The notes: generated by a model from the letters alone, not told the origin. Counted from the stretch's first letter, positions 20,943 through 45,296 are shown. The stretch is 64,000 nucleotides of DNA from Neptunicella sp. (GCF_048268085.1 NZ_JBLWWF010000012.1:19909-83908); one strand, 5' to 3'. A program made the numbers and translations.

Positions 20943-21077
20943 TATGATGTCCCACGGCCGATTAGCTTAACTTATTACCATTATTAACTATTTTTCCTTT
21001 AAAAAGGGTTCTAATAAAGGTACATAGGTATAAAATATAAATCATTTCAACAAATTTGCGCTGTTATCATCTATTTT

Positions 21078-23723
21078 GTGAAGTATCTCAAACCCTTAAT
21101 AATCATATTGTTGGTATCTGTATTACTAGGTATAGCGACTATCGCTTCGTTCTACATTTACCTGAAACCTCAATTGCCTAGTGTCGACGTTTTAAAAGAT
21201 GTCCACTTGCAAACTCCTATGAAAATTTATTCACAGGATGGCAAGCTGATCTCCCAATTTGGGGTAAAACGGCGAATTCCCCTATCAATTGAACAAATTC
21301 CACCGCAATTAATCAATGCTGTATTAGCCACCGAGGATAGTCGATTCTATGATCATCCGGGTATTGATATTATCGGCGTTTTCCGCGCAGCCGTTAATTT
21401 GATTACCACCGGTGAGAAAGGCCAAGGGGCCAGTACCATTACCATGCAATTAGCTCGGGGGTTTTTCTTAACCCGGGAAAAAGCTTATATCCGTAAAATT
21501 AAAGAAATCTTTATCGCCTGGCATATTGAACAAGTACTGACCAAGAATGAAATTCTTGAGTTGTATATGAATAAAATCGAACTGGGCCATCGTGCCTTCG
21601 GTTTTGGCGCCGCCGCACAAGTGTATTACGGCAAAGAGGTAAATGAACTCAATCTGGCACAAATCGCCACGCTAGCCGGATTACCTCAAGCCCCGTCAGT
21701 ACTTAATCCTATCAGTCGCCCCGAGCGTTCTTTAGCCCGGCGTCGCATTGTCCTGTTACGTATGCTGGATGAAAACTATATTAATCAACAACAATTCGAT
21801 CAGGCATTACAACAGCCGGTTACCGCTAAGTTACATGGCGCTGAAATCGAATTGCATGCACCTTATATTGCCGACATGGCCTATAACGAGATGATTGAGC
21901 GCTATGGTAAAGAAGAAGCCGAAACCCGTGGTTTTAGCGTTTACCTCACCACCCCGTCTGATTTGCAACGGGATGCGCAGCAAGCCGTAGTCAGAAACCT
22001 GCATGATTATGATGAACGCCATGGTTATCGCGGCCCAATTCGTCAATTATGGCAAGAACCTGAAGCTCCCCAAGCTGCTGAAACAGAAAATAGTGATACA
22101 TTCCAGGATGACTCTGCTAACCATGATTCGTTGTTAGCCAATACCACACTGGCCCAGCCCAGCAATGCCTGGTCGGAAGAGCAGATGCTGCAAGCACTTA
22201 ATTCACAAATAACTTATGCGCCATTAGAGCCGGCGATTGTCACTCATACCGAAGAGCGCTCAATTCAGGTCTTTAATGCCCAAGGGCAATATTTGGATAT
22301 TGATTGGGACGGTATTGCTTGGGCTCGTCCTTTTATTAATGATTCTAGACAGGGGCCCGACCCGCAAGTCGCCACTGACATAGTTAGCACCGGCGCACTA
22401 GTTTATATCCGTAAACGGGACGATGATTCTGGTCAATGGCAACTGAGCCAAATCCCAGATGTCAGTGGTGCCTTTGTGGCGCTTAATCCTGAAAATGGCG
22501 CTATTCAAGCATTAGTTGGTGGGTACAGCTTTTATCAAAGCCAGTTTAACCGCGCGACGCAAGCAAAACGGCAGGTTGGTTCGAACATCAAACCATTCGT
22601 TTATTCAGCCGCTTTAGATGCCGGTTACACCTTAGCCAGTGTGATCAATGACGCCCCGATCAATCAGTCTGACCGTGATTCGGGCACCGCCTGGCGTCCT
22701 CAAAATTCTGATCATACCTACGATGGCCCCATTCGCATGCGGGTCGGCTTGGGTAAATCAAAAAACATGGTATCGATTCGATTACTGCGCGGGGTAGGAC
22801 TGGACAATGTGATTCAACATCTTGCCCGCTTTGGTTTTAATCCCAAAGAATTGCCTCACGATGAAACCTTGGCAATTGGTTCTGCATCGTTAACACCGAT
22901 GGAGGTTGCCACTGGTTTTGCCATTATCAACAATGGGGGGTTTGCGGTAAAACCTTATCTGATAGAGCGAATTGAAGATTTACAGCAGCAGAAAGTCTGG
23001 AATGCCAATCCCATGGTGGCCTGTCGCAGCTGCCGTAATAAACCTCTGGATAGCTTGCCAGCTGAAACATTGCCAGAAGGAATTGAAGCTCCGCAAGTCA
23101 AATTAGCACCGCAAGTACTGGATTCACAAAATGCCTTTCTGGTCACCGAAATGATGCGCACCGGTTTACGCGCCAATGGTAGTTGGACCTATAAAACCTA
23201 TTGGCAAGGTACCGGCTGGCGAGCACGCAACATTTTACAGCGCGAAGATATCGCCGGTAAAACCGGAACGACAAATGATGCCAAAGATACCTGGTTTAGT
23301 GGTTTTACTCCCGATTTAGTTGCCACTGCCTGGGTTGGCTTCGATGATATGAGTCGCTCATTGGGTCGCACCAGTCCTAACCAATACCTGTTAAACAAAA
23401 ACCCTGAAAAATATAACTGGTTAGGTAACGCCATGGTCGGTGGTGAAGATGGGGCCCGTGCTGCTCAACCTGCATGGATCCGTTTTATGCAAAAAGCCTT
23501 ACAAAACGTACCTGAACGTCCCTTTTATATTCCTGAAGATATTGTCACCGTGCGTATTGACCGTACCACCGGTAAATTAACCCAGCGTACTGACCATACA
23601 TCACGTTTTGAATACTTTAAAAAAGGCACTGAACCCACTCAATATGTGCGTGAGGACGAACTGGTTGACCCTTATTTAGAGCAACAAGGTCAAACGCAGC
23701 AAGAACCGGAAGATATTTTTTAA
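21078..23723 (+). CDS. mrcA: penicillin-binding protein 1A (bifunctional glycosyltransferase/transpeptidase)
   Basis: GT51 motifs (ATEDSRFYDHPGID, GASTITMQLAR), transpeptidase motifs SxxK (GSNIKPF), SDH-like and KTGTTND. Divergent from pilM as in other Gammaproteobacteria. Confidence 0.93.
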   Translation: MKYLKPLIIILLVSVLLGIATIASFYIYLKPQLPSVDVLKDVHLQTPMKIYSQDGKLISQFGVKRRIPLSIEQIPPQLINAVLATEDSRFYDHPGIDIIGVFRAAVNLITTGEKGQGASTITMQLARGFFLTREKAYIRKIKEIFIAWHIEQVLTKNEILELYMNKIELGHRAFGFGAAAQVYYGKEVNELNLAQIATLAGLPQAPSVLNPISRPERSLARRRIVLLRMLDENYINQQQFDQALQQPVTAKLHGAEIELHAPYIADMAYNEMIERYGKEEAETRGFSVYLTTPSDLQRDAQQAVVRNLHDYDERHGYRGPIRQLWQEPEAPQAAETENSDTFQDDSANHDSLLANTTLAQPSNAWSEEQMLQALNSQITYAPLEPAIVTHTEERSIQVFNAQGQYLDIDWDGIAWARPFINDSRQGPDPQVATDIVSTGALVYIRKRDDDSGQWQLSQIPDVSGAFVALNPENGAIQALVGGYSFYQSQFNRATQAKRQVGSNIKPFVYSAALDAGYTLASVINDAPINQSDRDSGTAWRPQNSDHTYDGPIRMRVGLGKSKNMVSIRLLRGVGLDNVIQHLARFGFNPKELPHDETLAIGSASLTPMEVATGFAIINNGGFAVKPYLIERIEDLQQQKVWNANPMVACRSCRNKPLDSLPAETLPEGIEAPQVKLAPQVLDSQNAFLVTEMMRTGLRANGSWTYKTYWQGTGWRARNILQREDIAGKTGTTNDAKDTWFSGFTPDLVATAWVGFDDMSRSLGRTSPNQYLLNKNPEKYNWLGNAMVGGEDGARAAQPAWIRFMQKALQNVPERPFYIPEDIVTVRIDRTTGKLTQRTDHTSRFEYFKKGTEPTQYVREDELVDPYLEQQGQTQQEPEDIF

Positions 23724-23775: not shown

Positions 23776-24774
23776 CTAAAAAATATCCATGGTTCTTTCA
23801 ATAAACCAATAGCTGGACAACACACCGACACTAAGCGGCACATATCGCATAGAAATTAGCGAATTATTTGCAAAATATTTTTTCCCTATTTTGCAAATCA
23901 TCAAAATACAAATGACAAACAGGAGTTGGCCCAACTCAATCCCTACGTTGAAGAAAAAGAGTGAGATCGGGATTGAGTCTTCACCTATCCCAATATCATT
24001 TAACGCGGTCGCAAAACCGAATCCGTGTAACAAACCAAATCCAAATGCAGCTAGCCAGGGCCAGCGATGAATAGTCCCGACTTTTCCTTTTTGAGCCTGA
24101 ATAACTTCTGCTGCGAGAAATGCAATAGATAGTGCAATAGACGCTTCTACCGGTGCTGTCGGGAGATGAACCCAACCTAATGTTGTACCTATTAGTGTAA
24201 TTGAGTGTGCAATGGTAAAAGCGGTAATCGCCCCTAACAATTGTCTGCGACTTTTAATTATCAGAATAAGGCAAAAAACAAATAAAAGGTGGTCAATGCC
24301 CGCAAGTATATGGGTAACGCCAAAACCTAAGTAAGTTTTAGCTGCAATCCAGCCGTGTCGTTTAATTGGAATGTGAGCATAAGGTGCTGACCCTAATATG
24401 CGTAATGTCAGTCCTTCGCCAACTAAAGGCTCGTATTGAAGTAGCGCATCCGTTAGGCTCGCTTCAAGATTTTCAATATAAATTGTTTTACCAAGCAACC
24501 CACCATCACACTGACTTCGCCAAGTTTGAACTGCTGCACCTTTAACTTTTGTTGTACGCACCATTCCGGTGATATGGCATTCATGCGGAAGAATAACATT
24601 GAGATTCAAACGCATATCTCCTTGAGCCGGGGTTTTCCAAAGGAAATCATAAGTTGTCGATGTGATTTCACGAACATCAAGATAGGCAGGGCGAACTTCA
24701 TGGGCTGAGACGGTAGAAGCGAAACCAGTGAAATAAATTAACACTGCCAATAACGAGTACGCCCTCACGTTCAT
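23776..24774 (-). CDS. HupE/UreJ-family membrane protein with an N-terminal periplasmic domain
   Basis: Signal peptide, a soluble domain of about 140 aa, then 6 TM segments containing the HILAGIDHLLF signature typical of HupE/UreJ-type proteins. Start overlaps the upstream stop (TAATG). Confidence 0.72.
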   Translation of the reverse strand: MNVRAYSLLAVLIYFTGFASTVSAHEVRPAYLDVREITSTTYDFLWKTPAQGDMRLNLNVILPHECHITGMVRTTKVKGAAVQTWRSQCDGGLLGKTIYIENLEASLTDALLQYEPLVGEGLTLRILGSAPYAHIPIKRHGWIAAKTYLGFGVTHILAGIDHLLFVFCLILIIKSRRQLLGAITAFTIAHSITLIGTTLGWVHLPTAPVEASIALSIAFLAAEVIQAQKGKVGTIHRWPWLAAFGFGLLHGFGFATALNDIGIGEDSIPISLFFFNVGIELGQLLFVICILMICKIGKKYFANNSLISMRYVPLSVGVLSSYWFIERTMDIF

Positions 24775-25694
24775 TACTCCGTATTCCCAGAAAAGCGATG
24801 CGAATCAGTTGACGATATACTCCCTTGCATGGTCGATGTCGGCCAATCAACTTCTACCGAATAACGTTGACGAATTCGCGCTAAATAGTTCTTGGCGGCT
24901 TCCTCTCTTTTTGCTTCTATCCAGTCTACTTTCAGTTTGTCTTTGATTTCACTAAATTCAGGATCGATAGACGGTTCGCGTTGCGTAATAAATACGAGGT
25001 GAATACCCAAAGGTGAAGATACCGGACCAAACCATTTACCTTCCACACCAGCAAAAATACTTGATGCAAAGTTTTCTCCAAATAACGAGCTAATGCGTTG
25101 CTTGGATAAATGTGACAATTTTGCCGGTATCACTGATGGATCGCCCATTGATTCAGGCTTGGCACCGGCTTGCAGGTTTAACAAACCTTGCTGCGCATCT
25201 GAGATGGCTTGCTCTCCTCTGAGATCCTGACTAATCAGAACGTGACGAAAAGATATTCGCGCGGGAAACCGATATTCCAACCGTCGTACTTTAAACCAGT
25301 CTAACAATTGAGCATCACTAGGGTCTTCACTGGAAGCGGTATCTTGCGCAAGAAAAGTTAACTTTTGCTTCATTCGTCTTCGAACTATCGTGTCATCTTC
25401 ATCAAGACCAATTGCGATTGCTTCTCGATAAAATACCTCTTCGTTGACGAAGTCATCCACTAACGCACGTAACTCTTGTTTTGATGGTAAACGACCGGCG
25501 ACGAGACGATATTGATTAGATATTTGTTCTATTTGACCTTGAGTAACGACTATTTGTTGTGTTGCGCCTGATTTTTTCGCTCCGTTGATAAACAAGTTGA
25601 GTATAAATAATAACAACGCTATGAGCATAAATTGTAAAATGGGCTCTCGCAGCATTTTCGCAATAATACCACCAGCACGATTGCGATTATTCAT
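24774..25694 (-). CDS. membrane-anchored PpiC/SurA-like peptidyl-prolyl isomerase family protein
   Basis: N-terminal TM anchor (ILQFMLIALLLFILNLF), a SurA-N-like helical region (FVNEEVFYREAIAIGLDEDD.IVRRRM) and a short rotamase-like segment (WFGPVSSPLGIHLVFI). Start set at ATG 25694, which overlaps the DUF3604 stop as ATGAATAA. The ORF-track start at 25787 would give a 100-nt overlap. Confidence 0.62.
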   Translation of the reverse strand: MNNRNRAGGIIAKMLREPILQFMLIALLLFILNLFINGAKKSGATQQIVVTQGQIEQISNQYRLVAGRLPSKQELRALVDDFVNEEVFYREAIAIGLDEDDTIVRRRMKQKLTFLAQDTASSEDPSDAQLLDWFKVRRLEYRFPARISFRHVLISQDLRGEQAISDAQQGLLNLQAGAKPESMGDPSVIPAKLSHLSKQRISSLFGENFASSIFAGVEGKWFGPVSSPLGIHLVFITQREPSIDPEFSEIKDKLKVDWIEAKREEAAKNYLARIRQRYSVEVDWPTSTMQGSISSTDSHRFSGNTE

Positions 25695-27600
25695 CGGCAG
25701 GCTCAAACCAAATGGGTGACGTATAAGCGCGTTCCTGCACTGTTTTAGCAACATTAGGATTAGGTTCACTATTTGCGCGTATTGCATCCCATGTAGACCA
25801 ACGACATGTTGGGTTTTCTAATACACGGGCATAGTAAAATGCTCTTTGCGCAGCATCGAATTCAGGATCCAGCCACTGTGCACGTAATTCAGCATCACCT
25901 ACTCCTTGAGTCATTTCGCAGGTCTGGGTATTAACTGCTGCGCCATTATCCGCACAACGGTGGGTTTCGGGATTGATCGATCCATTATCGGAACAGGCAA
26001 CATCGTAAACTTTTTCATGAGATTGCCCCTCACTATCCAGCCAGCCCTTAATAATTTGCACACGTTGTAACGGGGCGGAATTAACATCACGAATAGCCAT
26101 CACCACAAAATTGAGGGGCGTGTTGGTTACATTGACGATTTCTCCCCCCATAGGTACGCCGTTGGCGTAAAGTCGTGCCAGTCCTTCAGCCGTGGTTAAA
26201 TCATCTGCATTCAGGTTTTTCCCGGCGAACAGTCGAACTTTTATTCTTGGCCCTGTCGTACTAAAGGTTTCTTTGCGACGCATAGCCGAAAACAATGACT
26301 CACGGGTATTCGATTCCGCCCAAACACCAGCCAGACCAGCTGAGCCCCATGCCAACGTTAAACGCGAAGGTCTGCCATCCGCATAGTATTCATTCCAGTC
26401 TTTAAATTCCGGGCCGGGAACTGAACCTCTTTTTGCAGGTGTTCCGTCGAGTACACCGGCCTTAGAAAAATAATTATCCTCTTCATAGGGCCCGGCTGAA
26501 TCATGACCATCGCTCCCCGAAACGAAACCCAATTTATAGGGATTTACACCCGTCGTATTTTCAATCTCCAAACCGCGTTTAAGCGCATCTCTCACATAGC
26601 CGCCTGCAAATTTAGTGATAGGTTTCAAGGACCCAATATAAGAGGTCATAAGTTCAAACCCGGCAAACTCATCGTTGGGAGAAAGTAATGGCATCGTCTC
26701 CGATTGCCCCTTCACTTGCGACACTTCTACTAAAGGTTCATTTCGAGCGCGCAATTGAGCGTATGCCTCATCAATTGGCTGACCATTCCACATGGTTCTT
26801 TCAAACATGGTGCCGTCAGAAGCATTGGAGTTATGTGGTATAGCCAATGAATCGATTCCCTGAGCACGCAGTTTATCCAACCAACGCCACAAGTCTTCAG
26901 GATTTTGCGAATCCAGAGCAGTGTATGGCAGTTCTGGTACCTTATTATTGGCAAAGATAACATTACGGTGCAGATTTCGCTTACCGGGTAATGAGGTAAA
27001 TTCGTATCCCACAAAGGTAGTGAATACACCGGGATTATTGTGCCGTTCAGCACTATCAATCTCGTCCTGCCATGCGGACTTCGTCACACGCGTATCACTG
27101 AACTCCGGCAAAACTTGACTTTCAAGCATACTATTAACAAAACGAGAAAAAGCACCTAGTACTTCTTTACGATTAGTGGAAAAAAGGTCCTTGGCATAAG
27201 GCACCTTGGAATATTCTGTACCCGGCGTCGCAATTTCAGCTAACACGCCAAGGTATTCGGCATGATCAGTCACCGCAAGAAAATCGAGAGGTGGAGAGTG
27301 CAATTTAAGGTCATAACCTAAAGGATGTTTGATGGTTTTTCCTTTAGCGTAGTTGTAAGCGTCATCCGGTGAGGTACGCACATTGAACAAGTATGCATCA
27401 TATGAATGACGGGTATGGATATGAAGATCACCAAAATAGGCGTTACGTATGGGGTTGACGGCAACGGTCTTTTTTTGCGCCATCTGATTACTAGCAGGTG
27501 CGCTTGACGCAACAACGGTCTCTGATGTCGACTCAGAGTCACAAGCAGATACAATAACGCAGCTAACTATTAGGAGCGTAATGGTTCGAAGTGTGGCCAT
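25687..27600 (-). CDS. DUF3604 family protein (PHP-like metal-dependent hydrolase fold), probable lipoprotein
   Basis: YFGDLHIHTRHSYDAY near the mature N-terminus (HxH, PHP-like) and a length above 600 aa fit DUF3604 as I remember it. The preferred start at 27600 gives MATLRTITLLIVSCVIVSA-C (lipobox). Alternative starts at 27687 and 27651. Confidence 0.72.
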   Translation of the reverse strand: MATLRTITLLIVSCVIVSACDSESTSETVVASSAPASNQMAQKKTVAVNPIRNAYFGDLHIHTRHSYDAYLFNVRTSPDDAYNYAKGKTIKHPLGYDLKLHSPPLDFLAVTDHAEYLGVLAEIATPGTEYSKVPYAKDLFSTNRKEVLGAFSRFVNSMLESQVLPEFSDTRVTKSAWQDEIDSAERHNNPGVFTTFVGYEFTSLPGKRNLHRNVIFANNKVPELPYTALDSQNPEDLWRWLDKLRAQGIDSLAIPHNSNASDGTMFERTMWNGQPIDEAYAQLRARNEPLVEVSQVKGQSETMPLLSPNDEFAGFELMTSYIGSLKPITKFAGGYVRDALKRGLEIENTTGVNPYKLGFVSGSDGHDSAGPYEEDNYFSKAGVLDGTPAKRGSVPGPEFKDWNEYYADGRPSRLTLAWGSAGLAGVWAESNTRESLFSAMRRKETFSTTGPRIKVRLFAGKNLNADDLTTAEGLARLYANGVPMGGEIVNVTNTPLNFVVMAIRDVNSAPLQRVQIIKGWLDSEGQSHEKVYDVACSDNGSINPETHRCADNGAAVNTQTCEMTQGVGDAELRAQWLDPEFDAAQRAFYYARVLENPTCRWSTWDAIRANSEPNPNVAKTVQERAYTSPIWFEPADE

Positions 27601-27701
27601 TGTTGAACGCGAATCAGCTTTTATTTTGCATATAAAAAGTGGCTTCATCATTTTATGTCCTGATTCATAAGAGATATTGGATGTCACAGTTAAAACAAAT
27701 A

Positions 27702-27728
27702 TAAAAAGGTGGGAGCGCTCCCACCTTC
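27702..27728 (-). terminator. perfect GC-rich hairpin plus T-run between the TonB receptor gene and the DUF3604 gene
   Basis: aaggtgggagc/gctcccacctt palindrome (27707-27728). On the minus strand it is followed by TTTTT (complement of 27704-27708). Confidence 0.7.
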
Positions 27729-27741
27729 CGGATCCCCCTAG

Positions 27742-30700
27742 CTAAAACGTATATTTAGCACTGACTTCAAAGGTACGACCTAGTGGATTAGCCATCCACG
27801 GATCGTAACCAAACTCCTCTTGCGCTGGCGGTGGATCACGATCCAATATATTAGCGGCAGTGGCGCTGATAGAAAGCTCATCATTAACTTCTACGAGATA
27901 GGTGAAGTTAACCGTCACCCAATTTTCACCGTTTTCGCCGTACTGAATATCAGGTCGTTCGTCAGTAACTGCAGAAACATAGTTTATACCTAGTCGGAAA
28001 TTCTGATAATCCAGTTGATAATTGATCCCCAAATTGGCCCGCCACTCGGGTGCAGCCTGTGCAAAAGTTGCAAAGTTTAAGGTGCCTAGTCTATCGTCGC
28101 CGGTAGAAACAACTACCCCATCCAATTCAGTAGAACCCGTTTTTAACTCTGTCACTTTGGTCGCGGTTAAATCCAGTTTCAAAATGCCAGTGTCAAACGG
28201 CATCTCATACTTTGCTTGAATATCAAAACCATTGGTCATTTGGCCCGGACCATTACCGTAGCGGGTCGAGATGGCTGAAAACGCGCCAATGGCGCTCATT
28301 CCCACCGTACAGCCGTTGCTAAAGGTCACACGATTTAACAAAGGTTGTTCATTTGCGTCACAAGTCGTAATTGTGCCACCTTCACCGTTAAAAACCAGAC
28401 TGGCAACTTGATTAGGATCCGCGACTTCACCAATTTGATCTTTTGTCTCAATATCAAAGTAATCAACGATGAGTTGAAAATCGTGATCCTCTGAAAAACC
28501 TCGGCTTTGCCAAATAGCACCGACATTCCACGATGTGGCGGTTTCTGGCTTAAGGTTCTCATCCGTAATAAATTGTGCTGCTAGCCAATTATTTGCTGCA
28601 ACCGTATACGTTCTAGCCCCCACACTTACCGCCCCAGGTATTACGCCAACAGGTGGAGTTTGATAATTGGTTCCGTAAGAACCACGGAAGATTAGTGAAT
28701 CGGTTGCCCGCCATTTACCGGCAAATTTATACACTGTAGCCCCTAAGCCTCCTGAAAATTCTTCATTACGCACTGCGGCCTGAAAGTCCACTGTATCGGT
28801 GACAGGTAACTGAAACTCGGCAAATAAGGAATATTGTTCACGTTCAGCGGCGTCAGCTGGATCCGGCGCAAAAAGCACATAGGGACCAGGGCCATCGGGT
28901 GTACATCCTCGGAAATCGGGATCGGTTGTCGATACCGGATTAGCTTCAAGGTTGGGTGATCCTTCACCATTTGCACTAGTGTAACCATCTGGCCAGGCGC
29001 AAGGTGTACTACCATCCATGAAAGGACTGTCAACTTTTTCTCGGCTAGAGAAATTTCGGTATTGTAGGCCTGTTGCCCACTTAATTTCGCCACCCGGCAA
29101 TTCAATGCCTGAACCTCCATTAAAAACTAAATCGAAAGTGAGGCTATTACTAACGGTTTCTATCGCGCGTTGGTCAAAGAGCCAACGAGTTAATTCTTCG
29201 TTGTTTTCACTGCCGGAGATATAGTTAGGATTACTTAAATTTTGCATCGGGTTTTTAGCAAAAGAACTGGAGAAAGGATTCCACCACATACAACCATTTT
29301 GACCTGCCGCAGACGGATTTTGTGTACCAAATCGGCTAGGATCCAGATCAACGGCGCTACAGTTTGGTCCGCCAAAACCATAAAGCGCTTCTTGTAAACG
29401 GTAACCAATCGTATCGGCGTGAGTACTGGATGAGATTGCCTGATTAAACGTCAGCGCCATATCAAACCCGATATCTTTAGCCCGCCCTGCCCAGTCACCC
29501 AATTCTCCGTTGAGCACAGCAGATACCCGCCAAACCTTATTCTGGATATCATCGGCGACCCCATAACCATCACCACCAGAAATAAAATCATTGCCGCCGT
29601 GAGCTAATAATCGGTAGGTGAGAGGAGTAAAACCTGCTGCTGATGAAAGCCCGTTATTGGCAGCAAACTCAGCCGCATAAGGATTACTAATAGGAATATA
29701 AAACTGATCAAGCAGAGTGGGCGAAAGTGCTGGCCCCCTTATTACCGGTTGTGCCGGAGATCCCATAACTTGTGGCACTGTGACTTGTCCGTAAGATGCA
29801 TCAAAATGAAAATCAATACTGTCGGTCACTTCAGCATTGAGCTGGGCATAACCTCGGAAAATATCCTGATTTTCGACCAATCGATAGAATTGAATATAAT
29901 TGTAGGCACAAGTATAGGCATTGTCATAGCGCCCCCCTACCGCGGCACAAGACTCAGGCGTGAAATCGGACGCAAATCCCACAGGGGCGCCCCATTCACC
30001 ATTGGCTGTCGCATCAGGAACTGACGGTAACGGCCCTCTGGCTGTCCAACCGGCGAGATTGGTTAGTGTTGACCAGGGAGCAGGATTATATCCTTCTTTG
30101 GTTGAATCGAGTGAAGCTTTAGAAAAATCTCTATCTAAGGTACTGAGACGGGAACGATGTTCATACTCCGCAGACCACATAAAATTAACTTTATCCTCGC
30201 CGAAGCCACCCAATAAGCCGATTGAATAATCACCATCAGACGAGTCAATCAATTTGTATTGTGCATTGGCTTCAAAACCAACAAATTCTTTACGGGTAAT
30301 AAAATTAACCACACCACCGGTTGCATCCGCGCCATAGATAACGGCAGCACCATCTTTGAGTACTTCAGTGTGGCTCAACGCAATCGAAGGAATATTAGAG
30401 GTATTCAGGTTCATTCTGCGGCCATTGAGCAAAATAAGGGTTTTATCTGAGCCTAGGCCACGTAGATTGTAATTAACCGAACCGGTCAGTGCGGGGCCAC
30501 CAAAGTAATAGGATTCCCCTGTGGTAGGCCCAGAAATAGTCAAGCTTTTAGCAAATTCCAGCGCCGATGGTGAACCTTGCTTTTCAAGATCCGCCTGATT
30601 GTAAACTTCAACGGGAAGGGCTGCATCGAGCGGGGTTCCCTTTATATAGGATCCCGTGACAATGATTAGCTCTACATCTTTCGTATCGGTCTTTGTCTCA

Positions 30701-30792
30701 CTATCTGCTTCTTGACCCCAGCTGCAAGGAGTGGTTAAAGCAATGCCTATTAATATTGCAAGGCGGGTTTTATTACACCGTTCAATCTCCAT
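27742..30792 (-). CDS. TonB-dependent outer-membrane receptor (1016 aa)
   Basis: Signal peptide, plug region (IIVTGSYIKGTP...ALEFAKSL...LILLNGRRM...EVLKDGAAVIYGADATGGVVNFITR), a long beta-barrel and a terminal ...KYTF. Confidence 0.9.
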   Translation of the reverse strand: MEIERCNKTRLAILIGIALTTPCSWGQEADSETKTDTKDVELIIVTGSYIKGTPLDAALPVEVYNQADLEKQGSPSALEFAKSLTISGPTTGESYYFGGPALTGSVNYNLRGLGSDKTLILLNGRRMNLNTSNIPSIALSHTEVLKDGAAVIYGADATGGVVNFITRKEFVGFEANAQYKLIDSSDGDYSIGLLGGFGEDKVNFMWSAEYEHRSRLSTLDRDFSKASLDSTKEGYNPAPWSTLTNLAGWTARGPLPSVPDATANGEWGAPVGFASDFTPESCAAVGGRYDNAYTCAYNYIQFYRLVENQDIFRGYAQLNAEVTDSIDFHFDASYGQVTVPQVMGSPAQPVIRGPALSPTLLDQFYIPISNPYAAEFAANNGLSSAAGFTPLTYRLLAHGGNDFISGGDGYGVADDIQNKVWRVSAVLNGELGDWAGRAKDIGFDMALTFNQAISSSTHADTIGYRLQEALYGFGGPNCSAVDLDPSRFGTQNPSAAGQNGCMWWNPFSSSFAKNPMQNLSNPNYISGSENNEELTRWLFDQRAIETVSNSLTFDLVFNGGSGIELPGGEIKWATGLQYRNFSSREKVDSPFMDGSTPCAWPDGYTSANGEGSPNLEANPVSTTDPDFRGCTPDGPGPYVLFAPDPADAAEREQYSLFAEFQLPVTDTVDFQAAVRNEEFSGGLGATVYKFAGKWRATDSLIFRGSYGTNYQTPPVGVIPGAVSVGARTYTVAANNWLAAQFITDENLKPETATSWNVGAIWQSRGFSEDHDFQLIVDYFDIETKDQIGEVADPNQVASLVFNGEGGTITTCDANEQPLLNRVTFSNGCTVGMSAIGAFSAISTRYGNGPGQMTNGFDIQAKYEMPFDTGILKLDLTATKVTELKTGSTELDGVVVSTGDDRLGTLNFATFAQAAPEWRANLGINYQLDYQNFRLGINYVSAVTDERPDIQYGENGENWVTVNFTYLVEVNDELSISATAANILDRDPPPAQEEFGYDPWMANPLGRTFEVSAKYTF

Positions 30793-30880
30793 CGTTTCCC
30801 CCTAATTATTGTTATAATTTTGTTAAGTTAATTAACATGAGAGTGAGTATTATTCCTTGTGATAATTTTGTCAATCAGAT

Positions 30881-31085: not shown

Positions 31086-31114
31086 GCTATCGAGTTAACA
31101 AATAACTCGATAGC
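31086..31114 (-). terminator. 12-bp perfect hairpin downstream of the SDR gene
   Basis: gctatcgagtta (31086-31097) / taactcgatagc (31103-31114) with a 5-nt loop. There is no clean U-tract, so the terminator call is tentative. Confidence 0.4.
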
Positions 31115-31142: not shown

Positions 31143-32057
31143 TTATTCTGCCTGTTGTGATGCCAACGCTTTTTCAACAAATTTAGTAGTTTGTTCATCA
31201 CCGCGTATAAACATTTTTTGTTTTGACACATCGACAATTTGATCAATATGAATTGCCACATTTTCTGCAGTTTGTTGTTCCGGAGGCAAGTAAATACCGT
31301 CCGTTTCAAAAATTTGTGTGGCCGCATATCCACCCGCACCAGCACACAATATCAATCGAGAAGGCGATTCATCGCTAGCTAAATAGACCAGTCCAGCAGA
31401 AACACTCTCGACTGTGAGCACTTCACTGGCTTGCTGATCTATTAATCCATCCATCATTCGGGTGGCAGCACATGGCGATATCGCATTCACTTTGATACCG
31501 TACTTCTTCCCCTCAATGTCCAACACATTCATTAGACCGACGACGCCCATTTTTGCGGCACCGTAATTAGATTGTCCAAAATTGCCATACAGCCCGGAAG
31601 ACGATGTTGTCATAATGATTGTGCCCTGTTGCTGTTCGCGCATGGTAGGCCACACTGCTTTAGAACAATTCGCAGCACCCATTAAATGCACATCCACCAC
31701 CAACTTAAAATCATCAAGGCTCATATTGGCAAAACTTTTATCCCGTAAAATCCCGGCATTGTTAACCAAAATATCGATCCTTCCCCATTGGGCTAACGTA
31801 TCAGAAACCATTTGATTGACTTCTTCAATGCTGGTGACATTAGCGCCATTAGATATGGCTTCACCACCAGCGGCCTTAATTTCCTTTACGACTTGTTCCG
31901 CGGCAGACAAGTCTCCACCTTCGCCACTGACACTACCGCCTAAATCATTGACAACCACTTTTGCTCCACGTGCCGCTAAGGCTAAAGCATGAGAGCGACC
32001 AAGACCGTTACCAGCTCCTGTAACAATAGCGACTTTTCCTTCAAATCTAATGTTCAT
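31143..32057 (-). CDS. SDR-family 3-hydroxyacyl-CoA dehydrogenase (MFE-2 dehydrogenase-domain-like)
   Basis: FEGKVAIVTGAGNGLGRSHALALAARGAKVVVNDLGG... and YGAAK (YxxxK) closely resemble the N-terminal dehydrogenase domain of type-2 multifunctional enzymes. Confidence 0.82.
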   Translation of the reverse strand: MNIRFEGKVAIVTGAGNGLGRSHALALAARGAKVVVNDLGGSVSGEGGDLSAAEQVVKEIKAAGGEAISNGANVTSIEEVNQMVSDTLAQWGRIDILVNNAGILRDKSFANMSLDDFKLVVDVHLMGAANCSKAVWPTMREQQQGTIIMTTSSSGLYGNFGQSNYGAAKMGVVGLMNVLDIEGKKYGIKVNAISPCAATRMMDGLIDQQASEVLTVESVSAGLVYLASDESPSRLILCAGAGGYAATQIFETDGIYLPPEQQTAENVAIHIDQIVDVSKQKMFIRGDEQTTKFVEKALASQQAE

Positions 32058-32234
32058 ACTGCAACCTTTATCGTTGTTCCCCCTTCACTATTGAGCGAGG
32101 AATTTAATTTCACTTGCCTATGGCAATCTCAGCCGATGTCTTCCTGTGATTACTGTTTTTCGACAATCACCTAGGTCGTTTTTCAATCAAACATTCTTCA
32201 ATTTAGTTGTACTCGATACTGAATTTAAAAATAT

Positions 32235-32268
32235 TGTGACAACATTTTATATTATCACACAGTATAAT
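32235..32268 (+). promoter_or_regulatory. imperfect dyad TGTGACAAC-N7-ATTATCACA followed by a consensus TATAAT
   Basis: The arms at 32235-32243 and 32251-32259 match 7 of 9 as an inverted repeat. tataat is at 32263-32268. It lies in the divergent SDR/TonB-receptor intergenic region. The same half-site, tgtgataat, occurs at 30858-30866. Confidence 0.3.
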
Positions 32269-32436
32269 GTTAATTATTGCAATAGTTTATGTTGACATTT
32301 ATTATAGTTTTGTTAAAAGTGTTACAGCTTTGTTGCTTTTAGTTGTAAGCCAAACACAGTGAACAACGCATGTACTTGCAGATGCTTTCGGGTTTCTTCG
32401 GGTTCAGGCCCACGACGGGATAGAGGAGAACTAACA

Positions 32437-34602
32437 ATGATAAGTCTTACCAAGAATAAAAAAGCGAAATTAAGCTTATTGGTGCTTTCTATGGGATTGA
32501 GTACACACTCAATTGCACAGGAAGAAGAAGTTGAATCCAAAAAGCCGAAAGAACATACCTTAGAAACCATTGAAGTCACTGCAGAACGACGTGTAGAAAA
32601 TATTCAAAAATCGCCGCTCGCTGCGTCAGTAATACAGGGTGATGAAATCAGCAAATTGGGGATTACGAAAGTAGATCAGCTACAATTTGCCATGCCCTCA
32701 GTGGTCGTCAATAACTTTGGCCAAGGCGTTGATTTTAATATCCGCGGTATTGGTAAGGCCGAGCACAATACACAAACAACTACCGGGGTTATAACCTATC
32801 GCGATGGTGTTGCAACCTTTCCTGGCTATTATACCGCTGAGCCTTACTATGACATCGCCAGAGTAGAAGTCTTACGTGGCCCGCAAGGAACATTCGCAGG
32901 CCAGAATGCAACCGGGGGGGCCGTATTTGTAAATTCGAACAATCCTGAAATTGGTGGCACTTATTCCGGTTATCTGCTCGGACAAGTCGGCAATTATCGT
33001 GACGTTGCTACACAAGGAGCGTTGAATATTCCAATTAGTGACACGTTCGCTGCTCGTATAGCGTTTAATACGGAAAACCGTGACAGTTTCTACGATATAG
33101 AAGGCCCTTACACCGGTGATGATGGTATTAGTATGCAAAGTGGAAGACTCAGTTTGCTTTGGGAACCCAGCGATTCACTATCAGTACTATTTAAATCTGA
33201 CTACAATTATCAGGATTTGAGTGCTTATCCCACTGACCCTGTCAATTCGCCAAATGATATGTTTGAAACCACGGCGAACGCAGACTTGGCGGCCCGAGAT
33301 AAATTTTCACGTTCAGTACTAAAAATTGATTATACCTTTGCCGGCGGTACCATTCTGCGCTCAGTTTCGGGCTATCAATCTGGTAAAAGCCTGTTTAAAG
33401 CCGATCTTGATGGCACGAGTGTTGGTATCAGGACTTTTCGAGATGAAGTAGAAGAGCGAATTTTCTCGCAAGAGCTTAACCTGATTTCACCGGATAATGA
33501 CGGCTTTAACTGGATCCTTGGTGCGTACTTTCAAAATGATGATATTACATTCCCACCAGGTCAGTTCGTAACAGGGTTACCTGAGGGTAATCCGGCTACC
33601 GAATACCGACTGGAAGGCGAAAACCCCAAAGAAACCAGAGCCGTTTTTGGTCAGGTCACCCTAGATTTATCTGAAGGTCTAGAATTGCAAGTAGGATTAA
33701 GACATTCAAGAAGCAATACCGAAAACCAAATTGATATCGTTCAATATGGCCTTCCTCTAGAGAGTTACCAAAAAGCGGAATACTCCAAGACCACAGGTAA
33801 AGTATCGTTAAACTGGGATGTTAATACCGACCACTTTCTATATGCCTTTGCGGCAACGGGCTACAGACCTGGTGGACTTAACGTTAATGTAGGGCTCGGT
33901 TTGCCTGAACCTTTTGATCAAGAAGAAGTCACCAGTTATGAATTCGGTTGGAAAGCGTCATGGCTCGACGATCACTTGCGTACTCAATTGACCGGCTTCC
34001 ATAATGACTATGATAATTTCCAGGTCAGAATTGGTTATCCGGATATTCCTACCTTCGCATTTCAGCTGAATACACCTGAAACCACCAAGATAACCGGTAT
34101 GGAAGCGCAACTTCAGGGCGTATTTGGGGATTTCTCAATTAATGCAGGTATGTCGATAATGCGCAGCAAATTAGGCGAATTTTATGCGACAGATCCACGT
34201 GTTCCTGCACCGGGTACGACTTGTGACCCAATAAGTGGACCAGAAACCATCTCATGTATTGCTTTAGAAGGGCGTGACCAGACCTATGCGCCTGACGTTA
34301 CTTTCAACTTTTCCATGCAGTATGAGTTTATGTTGGATAAAGGAACACTCACTCCTAGATTAAACTTCGGCCATGTATCCGAACAGTGGGCAACTTTATT
34401 CCAGAATGAAGCACTGGGAGATCGAATCGAAAGTCGAAATATAATGGGTGGTCAAGTTGCCTGGCAATATCAAGACTGGACAGTGACCCTGTACGCCACC
34501 AACTTGACAGATAGACGCTATGTTTCCGCTATCAATTCTGGCCTGCGACTGGCCGGCTTACCACGTCAGTATGGTTTGCGCGTGATGAAAACATTTTTCT
34601 AG
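32437..34602 (+). CDS. TonB-dependent outer-membrane receptor
   Basis: ATG at 32437 is preceded by aggaga (32424-32429). Signal peptide ...STHSIAQ, plug (IEVTAERR.ENIQKSP...VEVLRGPQGTFAGQNATGGAVF) and terminal ...VMKTFF. The ORF-track start at 32359 adds an implausible Cys/Arg-rich extension. Confidence 0.9.
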   Translation: MISLTKNKKAKLSLLVLSMGLSTHSIAQEEEVESKKPKEHTLETIEVTAERRVENIQKSPLAASVIQGDEISKLGITKVDQLQFAMPSVVVNNFGQGVDFNIRGIGKAEHNTQTTTGVITYRDGVATFPGYYTAEPYYDIARVEVLRGPQGTFAGQNATGGAVFVNSNNPEIGGTYSGYLLGQVGNYRDVATQGALNIPISDTFAARIAFNTENRDSFYDIEGPYTGDDGISMQSGRLSLLWEPSDSLSVLFKSDYNYQDLSAYPTDPVNSPNDMFETTANADLAARDKFSRSVLKIDYTFAGGTILRSVSGYQSGKSLFKADLDGTSVGIRTFRDEVEERIFSQELNLISPDNDGFNWILGAYFQNDDITFPPGQFVTGLPEGNPATEYRLEGENPKETRAVFGQVTLDLSEGLELQVGLRHSRSNTENQIDIVQYGLPLESYQKAEYSKTTGKVSLNWDVNTDHFLYAFAATGYRPGGLNVNVGLGLPEPFDQEEVTSYEFGWKASWLDDHLRTQLTGFHNDYDNFQVRIGYPDIPTFAFQLNTPETTKITGMEAQLQGVFGDFSINAGMSIMRSKLGEFYATDPRVPAPGTTCDPISGPETISCIALEGRDQTYAPDVTFNFSMQYEFMLDKGTLTPRLNFGHVSEQWATLFQNEALGDRIESRNIMGGQVAWQYQDWTVTLYATNLTDRRYVSAINSGLRLAGLPRQYGLRVMKTFF

Positions 34603-34617
34603 TTAACGACGCACATT

Positions 34618-34660
34618 GCAGCCAATTCAGCTGAATTGGCTGCGTATCCTTTTATTTTTA
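34618..34660 (+). terminator. intrinsic terminator after the TonB receptor gene
   Basis: 13-bp perfect palindrome arms gcagccaattcag/ctgaattggctgc (34618-34643) followed by a T-rich ccttttattttta. Confidence 0.65.
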
Positions 34661-34673
34661 TTCAGATAGAGCC

Positions 34674-36269
34674 ATGCAATCATATTCACTTACCGTAGAT
34701 AAGTTCCTTGACCATGCTGCTAAGTGGCTAGGAACACAAGAAGTTGTTTCTGTCCATCATGGAACAGAAGTGACGCGTATTAACTATGCTCAATTGAGAC
34801 AACGCAGTAATCAGTTTTCAGGGGCACTGCGGGCAATTGGCCTTAACTTTGGAGACAGGATTGGAACACTGGCCTGGAATACCCAGCACCATATGGAAAT
34901 GTACTACGCCACGATGGGAATTGGATTGATATGTCACACGCTTAATCCTCGCTTTAGTGCTAGTCATCTTGCCACTATTATCAATGAGGCTGAGAACCGT
35001 GCGCTAGCAGTTTCGGCCAATCTATTGCCCTTATTACAAGAACTACTGCTACTCTGCCCATGTATCGAACATGTCATTCTGATGGATGAAGATGATGTTG
35101 AACTCGCCGCTATCAATACACAAAGTGTGAGTGTTTGGCGTTATGAAGAGCTGTTAAGTAATAAAGGTCAACCTGTTGAATGGGGTGAATTCGATGAAAA
35201 CACCCCCGCGGGGCTATGTTATACGTCGGGTACAACCGGCAAACCCAAAGGCGTACTTTATACACATCGCTCAAACTATTTACATACACTTTGCACCTTA
35301 CAAACCGGCGGTATCGCGTTGAGAAGTAACGACGTTCTGCTGGTTGCCGTACCAATGTTTCATGCCAATGGCTGGGGTTTACCCTTTTCTGCCCCGGCAA
35401 TTGGTTCAAAAATGGTTTTGCCTGGTCGCAATGCAGATGGCGCAAGTTTAGCGACATTAATGCGTAATGAACGCGTAACAGTAGCAGCTGCAGTACAAAC
35501 AGTATGGTTAGGACTAGTTGAACATCTCGATGAATGTGGCGGTGAGTTACCTGATCTGGAGCGTATTTTGATAGGTGGATCAAAATGTCCTGACGCATTA
35601 ATCAAACGTATTGAAGATCGCCTTGGCGCACGTGTTCAAACCAGTTGGGGAATGACTGAGCTTTCCCCTCTAGGCACGGTGACAGCACTATTCGAGTCCA
35701 ATACAGACTCTCGTACTGCAGGCCGGCCCCTTATGGGAATTGATCTAAAACTCACAGATGCTCAGGGCAATACTTTAGAAGATCAACGCGGTGTGGTTGG
35801 ACACTTAAAAGCAAAAGGCGCGAGCGTGGTAGATCGCTATTATCAAGCCGAGCATGACTCACTAGATGAGCAAGGCTATTTTGATACAGGTGATTTGGCG
35901 ATGATCGATGAACGAGGTCACTTGAGTATTTGTGGCCGTTCAAAGGATCTGATTAAATCAGGTGGGGAATGGATAAACCCTGCAGAAATAGAAGATATTA
36001 TTGGCCAAATTGACTCTGTTGGACAAGTTGCAGTCATCGGAAAGCCGGATGAAAAGTGGGGAGAGCGGCCGATACTCATCGTTGAAGCCAATGCTGGTGA
36101 AGTGATTGACTCGAGTACTTTATTGAATCAATTACGTGGAAAAATACCTGACTGGTGGATACCCAAAGACGTTATAATGATTGATACTATGCCATTAGCA
36201 GCAACCGGCAAAATAGACAAACTTTGGTTAAAAGGTAATTACAAAAGTTTAAATCTTTCATCGATTTAG
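34674..36269 (+). CDS. long-chain fatty-acid--CoA ligase (AMP-dependent synthetase family)
   Basis: AMP-binding motif YTSGTTGKPKGV, plus GYFDTGD and the KSGGEWI region. Length of about 530 aa. Confidence 0.88.
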   Translation: MQSYSLTVDKFLDHAAKWLGTQEVVSVHHGTEVTRINYAQLRQRSNQFSGALRAIGLNFGDRIGTLAWNTQHHMEMYYATMGIGLICHTLNPRFSASHLATIINEAENRALAVSANLLPLLQELLLLCPCIEHVILMDEDDVELAAINTQSVSVWRYEELLSNKGQPVEWGEFDENTPAGLCYTSGTTGKPKGVLYTHRSNYLHTLCTLQTGGIALRSNDVLLVAVPMFHANGWGLPFSAPAIGSKMVLPGRNADGASLATLMRNERVTVAAAVQTVWLGLVEHLDECGGELPDLERILIGGSKCPDALIKRIEDRLGARVQTSWGMTELSPLGTVTALFESNTDSRTAGRPLMGIDLKLTDAQGNTLEDQRGVVGHLKAKGASVVDRYYQAEHDSLDEQGYFDTGDLAMIDERGHLSICGRSKDLIKSGGEWINPAEIEDIIGQIDSVGQVAVIGKPDEKWGERPILIVEANAGEVIDSSTLLNQLRGKIPDWWIPKDVIMIDTMPLAATGKIDKLWLKGNYKSLNLSSI

Positions 36270-36344
36270 CCAAGTTGACTGTCTGATTGTTAGTATTTAG
36301 GATTAAGCCATATCTCCGTCGATCATAATAAGTTGGATAACAAC

Positions 36345-37013
36345 ATGACACAGGAATCACCAAGGCGCTCAAGGCGCAGTAAAGCTGAGCAACGAGCTGA
36401 AAGTATAGAGCTAATCCTTGATGAAGCAGAATACCTGTTTTCCAAAAATGGACTTTATGGTGTCACACTGCGAGATGTCGCCAAACGCGTTGGTATACAT
36501 ACAACATTAGTGCACTATTACTTCAAGGATAAGCAAAATTTATTTGAAGAAGTATTTTCCCGTCGCGCAGGTGTCACCAGTAGTCGCCGTATGGCTGCGT
36601 TGCAACAATATGAAGTTGAGGCCGGTGATAATCCAACCGTGGAAGGGGCGTTGCACGCATTTCTCGATACCGACTTAGACCTGTATTACGACGGTGGTGA
36701 AAACTGGATGAATTACGCCGCCTTTTGCGCGCGGGTCAGTAATACGCCTGAAGGTGCCGAACTAATGGATAAACATTTTGATCCCGTCGTTCTTAAGTTA
36801 ATTGGGATTTTGAAAAAGGCTTTACCAGATTATTCAGATGAAGATATTTTCTGGGGGTATCATTTTGTCACCAGTTCGCTAATGAGTACGTTAGCCAGAA
36901 CTGGCCGTATCGATCGGTTATCTGATGGCGTATGCCATTCAGATGATTTCCCTGCCGTTAAAAAACGGATAGCCAAGTTTATGTCAGCGGGATTTTTGGC
37001 TCTGAAAGAGTAA
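36345..37013 (+). CDS. TetR/AcrR family transcriptional regulator
   Basis: N-terminal HTH (ILDEAEYLFSKNGLYGVTLRDVAKRVGIHTTLVHYYFKDK). Start placed at ATG 36345; the ORF-track TTG is at 36333. Confidence 0.85.
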   Translation: MTQESPRRSRRSKAEQRAESIELILDEAEYLFSKNGLYGVTLRDVAKRVGIHTTLVHYYFKDKQNLFEEVFSRRAGVTSSRRMAALQQYEVEAGDNPTVEGALHAFLDTDLDLYYDGGENWMNYAAFCARVSNTPEGAELMDKHFDPVVLKLIGILKKALPDYSDEDIFWGYHFVTSSLMSTLARTGRIDRLSDGVCHSDDFPAVKKRIAKFMSAGFLALKE

Positions 37014-37015
37014 AA

Positions 37016-37036
37016 GGGAATCGTCTGGCGATCCCC
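37016..37036 (-). terminator. hairpin downstream of the esterase gene, just 3' of the TetR stop codon (37011-37013)
   Basis: gggaatcg (37016-37023) / cgatcccc (37029-37036) pair at 7 of 8 positions. On the minus strand it is followed by TTTTAC. Confidence 0.4.
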
Positions 37037-37072
37037 TGATAGGTCAAAGTCATATTTAGTCGATACTATTAA

Positions 37073-41480: not shown

Positions 41481-41738
41481 TGAATAGTGTCCCAATTTAT
41501 TGAATTACATGTTGATGGTTGCAAACCAAAAACTATTAAAATATTGTTTTATAAAGAAATTAAATACGGTTTTTACAATATTATTGTTACTCTAAAACTA
41601 AGCTTGAAAGCTCACAAAGTAAGCAACCAGCCACTATCCTAACATTCACTATCACGTGTGTTAACATTTATTTCACGTATAATTTACAAATATTTTGCCG
41701 TTTTTTGTACAACGAACAATCTGACTCTGTCTTGCCAA

Positions 41739-43394: not shown

Positions 43395-43472
43395 TAATTA
43401 CCTTACTCCTGTTGCCACTTTTTACATAACCCCCTTTAACATCAAGGGTTGCCATGCTTAAGCAGAATTAAC

Positions 43473-45269: not shown

Positions 45270-45296
45270 AAAATTACTCTGGTTAAATTTATCTGC

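Follow-up and report, generated by a model that had tools for sequence, protein, structure and literature searches.

The stretch of DNA analysed here (64,000 nt from Neptunicella sp., called the window below) carries on its minus strand, between positions 23776 and 30792, a unit of four genes that encode a TonB-dependent receptor, a DUF3604 lipoprotein, a PpiC/PpiD-like protein and a membrane protein of the HupE/UreJ_2 family. The conserved unit consists of three of these genes, not four. The DUF3604, PpiC-like and HupE/UreJ_2 genes, referred to below as the trio, recur together in two phyla, and the receptor accompanies the trio in this lineage as an accessory partner, outside the conserved core. 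A tentative proposal developed below is that the two membrane proteins of the trio would fold and metal-load the exported DUF3604 protein, a putative hydrolase.

All four open reading frames (ORFs) were confirmed where a first-pass annotation, made from the sequence alone, had placed them (Table 1). Its gene identities, its motifs (DLHIHTRHSYDA and the lipobox IVSAC in the DUF3604 protein, HILAGIDHLLF in the HupE/UreJ_2 protein), the two gene overlaps and the envelope-spanning layout of the products all proved correct. The likely start of the DUF3604 gene is the ATG at 27651, which has AGGA upstream, and an alternative ATG lies at 27600. The ATG of the PpiC-like gene is found inside GATGAATAA, with an 8-nt overlap with the DUF3604 stop, and that of the HupE gene, within TAATG, overlaps the PpiC-like stop by 1 nt. 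The receptor gene does not overlap the trio: its stop is separated from the DUF3604 start at 27651 by ~90 nt, an interval in which an 11-bp GC-rich stem (-16 to -17 kcal/mol) is followed by a T-run. This hairpin may be a terminator or an attenuator. Its fold is no stronger than that of shuffled sequence (z -1.3), the orthologous loci of Alteromonas sp. (L010) and Steroidobacter gossypii (L006) lack it at this junction, and no consensus promoter was found between it and the DUF3604 gene.

Table 1. Coordinates of the genes and candidate regulatory elements in the window
Feature	Position	Strand	Remarks
HupE/UreJ_2 gene	23776-24774	-	PF13795 match; signal peptide; contains HILAGIDHLLF
PpiC/PpiD-like gene	24774-25694	-	Rotamase_2 match and N-terminal membrane helix; putative periplasmic foldase
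DUF3604 lipoprotein gene	25687-27651 (ORF 25687-27687)	-	637-aa form; PF12228; putative catalytic component
Terminator-like hairpin and T-run	27704-27729	-	Between receptor stop and DUF3604 start
TonB-dependent receptor gene	27742-30792	-	1016 aa; Plug and TonB_dep_Rec_b-barrel domains
Operator-like element	30828-30853	-	Overlaps -10 region and transcript start of receptor promoter
Sigma-70-type promoter candidate TTGACA-17-AATACT	30846-30874	-	Upstream of receptor gene
Perfect 19-bp palindrome TTGCACAAAcTTTGTGCAA	30881-30899		Immediately upstream of -35 hexamer; unique in window
Lipid-ester catabolic island	31143-49527		From Pfam matches and signal peptides

Conservation and coupling of the trio

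A pattern scan with one genome per species returned at least 600 matching DUF3604 stretches, and the best 80, those most similar to the query, were kept with 10-kb flanks. The six-frame ORFs of these loci were searched with the window proteins, genes being called by a simple ORF heuristic. The surveyed loci belong to Alpha- and Gammaproteobacteria and to Acidobacteriota (Hyphomonadaceae, Caulobacteraceae, Sphingomonadaceae, Steroidobacteraceae, Alteromonas, Pseudomonadales and Acidobacteriota). The PpiC-like gene follows DUF3604 in 53 of the 80 species-level loci, and the full order and orientation DUF3604, PpiC-like, HupE/UreJ_2 is found in 51. A few further loci end at contig edges before the trio can be completed, and the HupE gene lies divergently upstream instead in three loci of Caulobacteraceae. 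Because the arrangement recurs in 51 of 80 species-level loci, the adjacency is far beyond chance. The gene-neighbourhood survey that the first-pass annotation had called for thus finds the DUF3604, PpiC-like and HupE genes co-conserved elsewhere. The four-gene unit that it had described stands for these three genes but not for the receptor, whose gene is hairpin-separated in the window; a TonB receptor lies within 1 kb of the trio in only 11 of the 51 loci.

The coupling of the genes is conserved together with their order. For 39 of 44 loci the junction between DUF3604 and the PpiC-like gene measures 20 nt or less. When the nearest in-frame HupE start is taken, the HupE gene shares 1 or 4 nt with the PpiC-like gene in 34 of 44 loci, and exactly 4 nt in 30 of 44, against ~5% expected by chance; the choice of the nearest start is a biased estimator of overlap. 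A distant DUF3604 subfamily of 783 aa, from an Acidobacteriota genome, is also found with the trio and a 4-nt overlap. Two metagenomic ORFs in which Rotamase_2 and HupE/UreJ_2 are fused (P0463 and P0390) were considered as fusion evidence and set aside, since the internal HupE signal peptide is retained; they most likely arose as artefacts, through a frameshift or read-through at the 4-nt overlap.

The trio also occurs on mobile and secondary replicons. A tblastn search of plasmids with the HupE protein gave 97 records, and the full-length matches that were inspected (39-44% identity) lie directly after a gene annotated as 'peptidylprolyl isomerase' and one or two DUF3604 genes, on a conjugative accessory plasmid of Sinorhizobium meliloti, a plasmid of Rhizobium leguminosarum and a chromid of Pseudoalteromonas. 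No TonB receptor was found near these inspected trios. In S. meliloti USDA1021 (plasmid accessoryA, 4297-10598; L085) two tandem DUF3604 genes, the isomerase-type gene, the HupE/UreJ gene and a 201-aa hypothetical gene are placed as cargo between type IV secretion genes and traA/mobC of the conjugative plasmid. In R. leguminosarum (L086) the trio is likewise followed by a small hypothetical gene similar to this one, which makes a fourth component in rhizobia conceivable. On the chromid of Pseudoalteromonas sp. JSTW (L088, 3240-4875), genes for a short HupE/UreJ protein of 231 aa, a hypothetical protein and DUF6488 are divergent from the trio.

Several DUF3604 genes may share one PpiC-like/HupE pair: three tandem copies precede a single pair in locus L029 and two in L085, and extra copies are also present in L025, L047, L054 and L077. 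DUF3604 copies that are linked to the pair and those that are not fall into separate sequence clusters, with a nearest-neighbour concordance of 65/72. Around the unlinked copies no consistent neighbour or partner was found. One of them, a 735-aa DUF3604 on contig_2 of ERZ26166944 (3978-10396; L091), is immediately followed by a pentameric ligand-gated ion-channel-like gene and has a sulfatase/phosphodiesterase-family gene ~1.4 kb upstream, with S15 peptidase and patatin genes further upstream, which makes another hydrolase-rich context of DUF3604.

Pfam counts for the two genes on each side of the trio revealed no other recurrent partner and no metal-homeostasis genes. The commonest families upstream are TonB receptors (~10 of 90 genes) and acyl-CoA dehydrogenases (four), and those downstream are GGDEF proteins, histidine phosphatases, alpha/beta hydrolases and MFS transporters (three to five each). 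The components of the trio are known superfamilies, and operons that combine an enzyme with accessory proteins are already a known kind; this specific, widespread trio is not described as a set in the searchable literature.

The three proteins of the trio

The DUF3604 protein matches PF12228 over profile positions 2-591 of 591 (E 5e-220, 732 bits, cutoff 20.4) and belongs to a family with more than 8000 homologues at E 1e-10, the closest non-self match being 67% identical. The searchable literature holds no assigned activity and no characterised member, the one paper found to name DUF3604 being unrelated, and there is no solved sequence relative, in agreement with the first-pass annotation, which had called the family one without assigned activity. 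Of 105 close homologues 94 have a lipobox and the remainder Sec signal peptides, and Tat-like motifs are rare (9/109 and 2/95); the protein is therefore exported unfolded.

An AlphaFold2 model built with 18 similar sequences (pLDDT, the predicted local distance difference test, of 50) was discarded. The final alignment of 141 sequences from two subfamilies gave a model with a pLDDT of 91 and a predicted template-modelling score (pTM) of 0.90, in which an alpha/beta catalytic domain (residues ~50-440 of the 637-aa form) is followed by a C-terminal beta-sandwich. No PDB sequence match was obtained from the single sequence or from two profiles, no Pfam PHP match at E<=10 and no match in a PDB fold search at E<=1e-3; a tblastn search of phages found nothing. 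The only significant fold match of the model is a phage protein described as 'polymerase/histidinol phosphatase N-terminal domain' (E 2e-6, probability 1.0, template-modelling score (TM) 0.43). A YcdX-family alignment was assembled from E. coli and plasmid homologues. Aligned with hhalign, DUF3604 residues 55-114 of the 637-aa form (profile 52-111) correspond to YcdX residues 2-41 (profile 5-44) with E 1.1e-3 and a probability of 21%, a stretch that spans DxHxHT and ITDH. The corresponding PHP motifs of DUF3604 are DLHIHT at 58-63 (motif I) and VTDH at 110-113 (motif II). Its GSDGH (362-366) is aligned to GSDSH of YcdX (190-194) in a single-sequence comparison of low probability.

Across the 141 DUF3604 sequences His62, Asp68, His113, Glu200, His211, His256, Asp364 and His366 are invariant, and His60 is conserved in at least 90%. 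In number and order these nine residues match what we take to be the nine metal ligands of the YcdX structure. Seven of these presumed ligand positions are invariant in the YcdX-family alignment, as is the non-ligand Asp5, and YcdX His15 aligns with DUF3604 Asp68. In the model Glu200 is at the end of the strand 193-201, His211 stands just before the strand 212-216 and His256 just after the strand 251-255; these three residues were aligned to YcdX ligands by no tool. From its conserved residues and predicted fold, the DUF3604 protein is likely a divergent, exported PHP-type multi-metal hydrolase. The family also has many invariant Arg and Lys residues. Weak fold matches of the C-terminal beta-sandwich (~450-637) to RhoGDI and UNC119 (E ~7e-3, TM 0.37-0.45) were not used as evidence of lipid binding. 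Cysteines 536, 549, 561 and 599 are conserved in the subfamily that resembles the window protein and replaced in the 735-aa subfamily.

The PpiC-like protein matches Rotamase_2 (PF13145) over residues 126-253 (E 9e-12, 46 bits, cutoff 27) and has no match to SurA_N or to a PpiD-type chaperone domain. The conserved catalytic residues of active parvulins are missing as a set from its 53 orthologues: 34 of them have His and 19 have Gln at the position of the first parvulin histidine, and conservation is also lacking in the central motif. Because of these two features the protein is placed nearer to inactive parvulin chaperones, such as the PpiD domain, than to an isomerase, and on its sequence it looks like a chaperone.

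The HupE protein matches PF13795 (E 4e-47, 160 bits, cutoff 24.5) and more weakly PF04955 (34.8 bits, cutoff 23). Ala24 is the last residue of its signal peptide and HEVRPAY the beginning of the mature protein (A/HEVRPAY at the cleavage point). Invariant in all 51 orthologues are His25 (His1 of the mature protein), Glu26 and Pro29 and, in the membrane helices, His155, Asp161, His162, His190, Ser191 and His250. The periplasmic N-terminal domain of ~115 aa belongs to no Pfam family and has 890 relatives among 50%-identity clusters; most of the matches listed begin at residues 20-27, right after the signal peptide.

This layout, with a signal peptide, a histidine as first mature residue, an extracytoplasmic domain and a PF13795 domain, is that of the anglerases, in which a His1 beta-sandwich domain is fused to a HupE/UreJ-2 permease and which are proposed to fish metal ions into the channel for uptake (PMC12537917, Nat Commun 2025). 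The characterised Ang-1 domain (PDB 9GCE) binds Cu2+ with a dissociation constant (Kd) of 74 nM and Ni2+ with one of 220 nM (PMC12537917). In MmAng-2a a three-His site is predicted at residues 194, 201 and 229 (PMC12537917), and the spacing of His155, His162 and His190 in the protein of the window (7 and 28 residues) is the same. The differences from the anglerases are a shorter N-terminal domain (~115 aa) and the lack of a sequence match to 9GCE: neither a phmmer search of the PDB, 9GCE included, nor one with a 61-sequence profile of this domain retained a chain at E<=10. Since the domain is shorter and matches neither 9GCE nor any other PDB chain, it is assigned to a clade different from that of Ang-1. 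In the anglerase paper neither a DUF3604 nor a peptidylprolyl isomerase partner is reported, and among the neighbours counted in its supplement Rotamase_2 appears three times and DUF3604 not at all (PMC12537917). 'Ni/Co-type' is for the HupE protein a family name only. The Ni/Co-type permease of the first-pass annotation is upheld as a member of the HupE/UreJ family; as to the metal, the characterised relative with the same architecture binds Cu2+ better than Ni2+ (PMC12537917).

More distant HupE/UreJ_2 matches, which share the membrane domain only and have other N-terminal regions, lie downstream of other exported proteins of unknown function. Examples are found on a plasmid of Marinobacter adhaerens HP15 (L089), with a DUF4331 partner, and on a Skermanella plasmid (L090). 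There are hints in these sequences that the HupE/UreJ_2 family may generally pair with exported clients.

The receptor, its promoter region and the lipid-ester island

The 1016-aa receptor has a signal peptide, a TonB-box-like VELIIVTGS and matches above cutoff to both PF07715 (Plug) and PF00593 (barrel). Among the substrate-specific models of NCBIfam its best score is 71 bits, against cutoffs of 300-1200, and no siderophore, haem, B12 or metal receptor model is matched. Receptors near the trio were sought with a generic TonB-receptor hidden Markov model iterated on the locus ORFs to convergence, which recovered both Pfam-annotated receptors of the locus L001. Across the 51 trio loci, 11 receptor genes lie at 0-1 kb, nine at 1-5 kb and two at 5-10 kb; 17 loci have a receptor within 5 kb. 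Co-directional upstream receptors, as in the window, are found in ~3 trio loci (L006, L010 and L059), and orthologues of the 1016-aa receptor stand beside the trio only in S. gossypii (L006, 66%) and Alteromonas sp. (L010, 76%). The association of receptor and trio is real and concerns a minority of loci.

The TTGACA hexamer of the receptor promoter is conserved in the orthologous region of Steroidobacter, and the operator-like element is conserved in position in the window, in Alteromonas (L010) and in the high-GC Steroidobacter locus (L006). This element is related to the palindrome TTAACTCAC-NN-GTGAGTTAA, which is perfect beside the tetR orthologue of Hyphococcus (L005, 1924-1943) and has two mismatches in a metagenome-assembled genome (L004, 2090-2109) and in L006 (6873-6892), where ~0.0025 matches per locus are expected by our own estimate. 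In the window the palindrome has no match with three mismatches or fewer; the copy within the operator-like element has five, which taken alone is chance level, and only its conserved position singles it out. Weaker copies lie between the divergent receptor and DUF3604 genes in L004 and L005 and, in the window, upstream of the MFS gene (41645-41664); they occur at chance frequency (~7 matches per 64 kb by our own estimate), as do window matches with 4-5 mismatches in general, and are likewise distinguished by position only. By these sequence matches, which lie beside tetR/SDR orthologues and upstream of the 1016-aa receptor gene, TTAACTCAC-NN-GTGAGTTAA is a candidate operator of the TetR protein encoded in the adjacent island. 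The palindrome TTGCACAAAcTTTGTGCAA is a candidate site for a second regulator, and a different palindrome takes the same relative position in Steroidobacter (L006). Just downstream of the SDR stop, a perfect 12-bp inverted repeat, GCTATCGAGTTA / TAACTCGATAGC (31086-31114), probably marks the end of the SDR transcription unit and separates it from the receptor promoter.

Scans of the promoter regions for Fur, Zur and NikR consensus boxes, which the first-pass annotation had suggested, produced nothing above the window-wide background, the best matches (Fur 13/19, Zur 15/23, NikR 8/12) all lying inside it. An Rfam scan of 19-50 kb detected no riboswitch, including the cobalamin and NiCo classes. 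The sole Rfam hit, asponA at 21075-21344 on the minus strand (21 bits against a gathering threshold of 113, E 0.018), is antisense to the 5' end of the PBP1A gene and is probably noise.

The adjoining island contains an SDR, a second TonB receptor of 747 aa, an acyl-CoA-ligase-type enzyme and a TetR protein (TetR_C_30), together with two type-B carboxylesterases that bear signal peptides, a third exported alpha/beta-hydrolase-like protein and an OATP-like MFS transporter. It further includes an acyl-CoA dehydrogenase (FadE-like), an SDR, a thiolase (FadA-like) and a FadB-like protein. Orthologues of the SDR, TetR, ligase, esterase and MFS genes adjoin the trio in Alteromonas (L010), Hyphococcus (L005) and the metagenome-assembled genome L004, in differing arrangements; for the 747-aa receptor, L010 alone offers a clear orthologue. 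The island genes of the window are closest to those of Alteromonas (60-85% identity). For the DUF3604, PpiC-like and HupE proteins the identities are 66, 46 and 54% to alphaproteobacterial sequences and 59, 32 and 40% to those of Alteromonas. These values suggest that the three genes of the module may have been replaced or exchanged together, inside an island that was itself conserved.

Possible role in the maturation of an exported metalloenzyme

Gene order and coupling, co-conservation, export signals, conserved residues and the lack of metal-regulator sites are observations; the scheme that follows adds to them, by inference, the PHP chemistry, which metal flows and in which direction, a chaperone role and the substrate. 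The DUF3604 protein would be the payload, a Sec/Lol-exported, usually lipid-anchored PHP-type multi-metal hydrolase that, by analogy, would most likely cleave phosphoester-type bonds. As it passes the inner membrane in an unfolded state, both its folding and its metal loading have to take place in the periplasm. There the PpiD-like protein, with its degenerate parvulin domain, would serve as a foldase or holdase at the membrane, and the HupE/UreJ_2 protein would capture a divalent transition metal through its N-terminal His domain and invariant three-His membrane site and would supply or buffer this metal for DUF3604. In this genome and a few other lineages the module would have been recruited into the lipid-ester island, probably sharing its TetR-type regulator; the large TonB-dependent receptor would import a substrate that the periplasmic esterases and DUF3604 would then process. 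Folding and metal loading of the exported hydrolase by the two membrane proteins is the reading we favour, at a probability of roughly 0.4. The more specific version, a client-specific maturation system in which an anglerase hands metal to a chaperone-held PHP-type hydrolase, is a doubtful though possible one.

Parts of this logic are found in other systems. YcdX, a zinc phosphatase of the PHP family, needs the maturation chaperone YcdY for cofactor loading (PMC4464133), and the two genes are adjacent in E. coli. The likeness lies in a PHP-type multi-metal hydrolase encoded beside its cofactor-loading partner, and in motifs I and II and the final DxH, which align with DUF3604. YcdX is a cytoplasmic protein of 245 aa and YcdY a TorD-family chaperone, whereas DUF3604 is exported, has ~640 aa with large insertions and an extra beta-sandwich, and has as partners a parvulin-like protein and a permease. 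MeeF and MeeY, TerC proteins of Bacillus subtilis, metalate Sec-exported enzymes (PMC10550928). As proposed for the trio, enzymes exported in an unfolded state receive their metal from a transport protein embedded in the membrane; TerC, however, is an unrelated family, a general Mn-specific factor with many clients that is not encoded together with one of them, and the corresponding role of the trio is a proposal only. With PpiD, SurA and PrsA the PpiC-like protein shares a membrane anchor at the N-terminus and, after it, a parvulin-type domain in the periplasm, whose catalytic residues, as in PpiD, are not conserved. It differs from PpiD in being about half its size and, in the proposed scheme, a client-specific partner rather than a housekeeping factor. 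The operons of urease with UreJ and of [NiFe]-hydrogenase with HupE likewise contain a HupE/UreJ-family permease beside the metalloenzyme that it serves. Those enzymes are loaded with Ni in the cytoplasm by GTPase chaperones, none of which is present here, and their permeases are PF04955 proper, without the N-terminal His1 domain.

Several points weigh against the maturation of a periplasmic client. The PHP assignment of DUF3604 is statistically weak, given the hhalign probability of 21% and the absence of a Pfam PHP match and of a PDB fold match at the thresholds above. About one-third of the surveyed DUF3604 loci have no PpiC-like/HupE pair nearby, and the protein is thus apparently able to exist without adjacent helpers. 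The HupE/UreJ proteins characterised so far act as importers for enzymes that are assembled in the cytoplasm. The authors of the anglerase study, too, propose uptake and not delivery to a periplasmic client (PMC12537917).

The first-pass annotation had offered two options, a dedicated metal-acquisition route or a metal-dependent periplasmic scavenging pathway, and the second fits the window better. In a metal route the receptor would import a metal chelate or an organic compound that bears metal, DUF3604 would hydrolyse the carrier in the periplasm, His1 of HupE would catch the ion and the permease would import it, a series of events in line with the membership of the permease in the HupE/UreJ family and with the enrichment of TonB receptors near the trio (11 genes within 1 kb against two at 5-10 kb in the 51 loci). 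An established precedent is the release of iron from siderophores by periplasmic esterases. The anglerase architecture itself was proposed for uptake, and its binding of Cu2+ and Ni2+ was measured (PMC12537917). Yet two-thirds of the trio loci lack a receptor within 5 kb and none accompanies the copies on rhizobial plasmids, the scans for Fur, Zur and NikR boxes stayed at background level, no metal riboswitch was found, and metal-homeostasis genes do not recur in the flanks. The receptor of the window fits no siderophore or metal receptor model, and its low model scores are joined by a promoter palindromic element that is shared with the TetR-containing island, in a local context of esterases, a CoA ligase, beta-oxidation genes and TetR. 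Tandem DUF3604 paralogues served by one permease would also be hard to explain. A helper role is preferred to metal uptake because of the Sec/Lol export of the client, the presence of one pair for several paralogues, the independence from TonB receptors and the lack of metal regulation. Uptake is therefore considered less likely than maturation and, on its own, unlikely.

The tight translational coupling of the trio suggests a stoichiometric complex, and the products could thus form a catabolic membrane complex in which the HupE-like protein is an anchor or an inner-membrane channel for product uptake and the PpiC-like protein a structural subunit. The invariant Arg and Lys residues of DUF3604 would suit an anionic substrate or product, and distant HupE/UreJ_2 proteins are found beside other exported proteins, such as DUF4331 in Marinobacter HP15. 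The invariant N-terminal histidine and the His/Asp/His/His/Glu set in the membrane are, on the contrary, typical of metal sites, and the three-His spacing equals that of the predicted metal site of a characterised relative (PMC12537917), which leaves the complex a rather improbable explanation. Improbable, and slightly more so, is a self-protective metal homeostasis in which the permease removes or buffers local metal, or imports it for an unrelated cytoplasmic need, DUF3604 being co-regulated only. A metalloenzyme and its own importer often share an operon without direct contact, as do urease and UreJ or hydrogenase and HupE. DUF3604, however, is exported unfolded, so that cytoplasmic import would not help to load it, and the membrane-anchored foldase conserved between the two genes would be left without a role. 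An accidental adjacency of four unrelated genes is given next to no credence. It draws on the receptor, separated by the hairpin and not conserved with the trio, for which it may hold in part; for the three downstream genes it is refuted by the recurrence, in two phyla and also on plasmids, of the same order and of start codons that overlap stop codons.

How exported enzymes acquire their metals is a poorly answered question, for which a compact, widespread and plasmid-borne trio provides a clean genetic test system, present in genera that can be cultivated, among them Sinorhizobium, Rhizobium, Alteromonas and Pseudoalteromonas. The trio gives the HupE/UreJ-2 anglerases a concrete candidate client and, if maturation of DUF3604 is indeed its function, this would be the first physiological client of the anglerase class and the first case of a HupE/UreJ-family protein that serves an enzyme outside the cytoplasm. 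DUF3604, a large family for which a confident model and a set of candidate catalytic residues are now available, would then be a new PHP hydrolase family whose members are exported and might act on lipid-linked phosphoesters. In the genome studied here the module probably takes part in degrading an imported ester of lipid type in the periplasm, a process that bears on marine carbon turnover.

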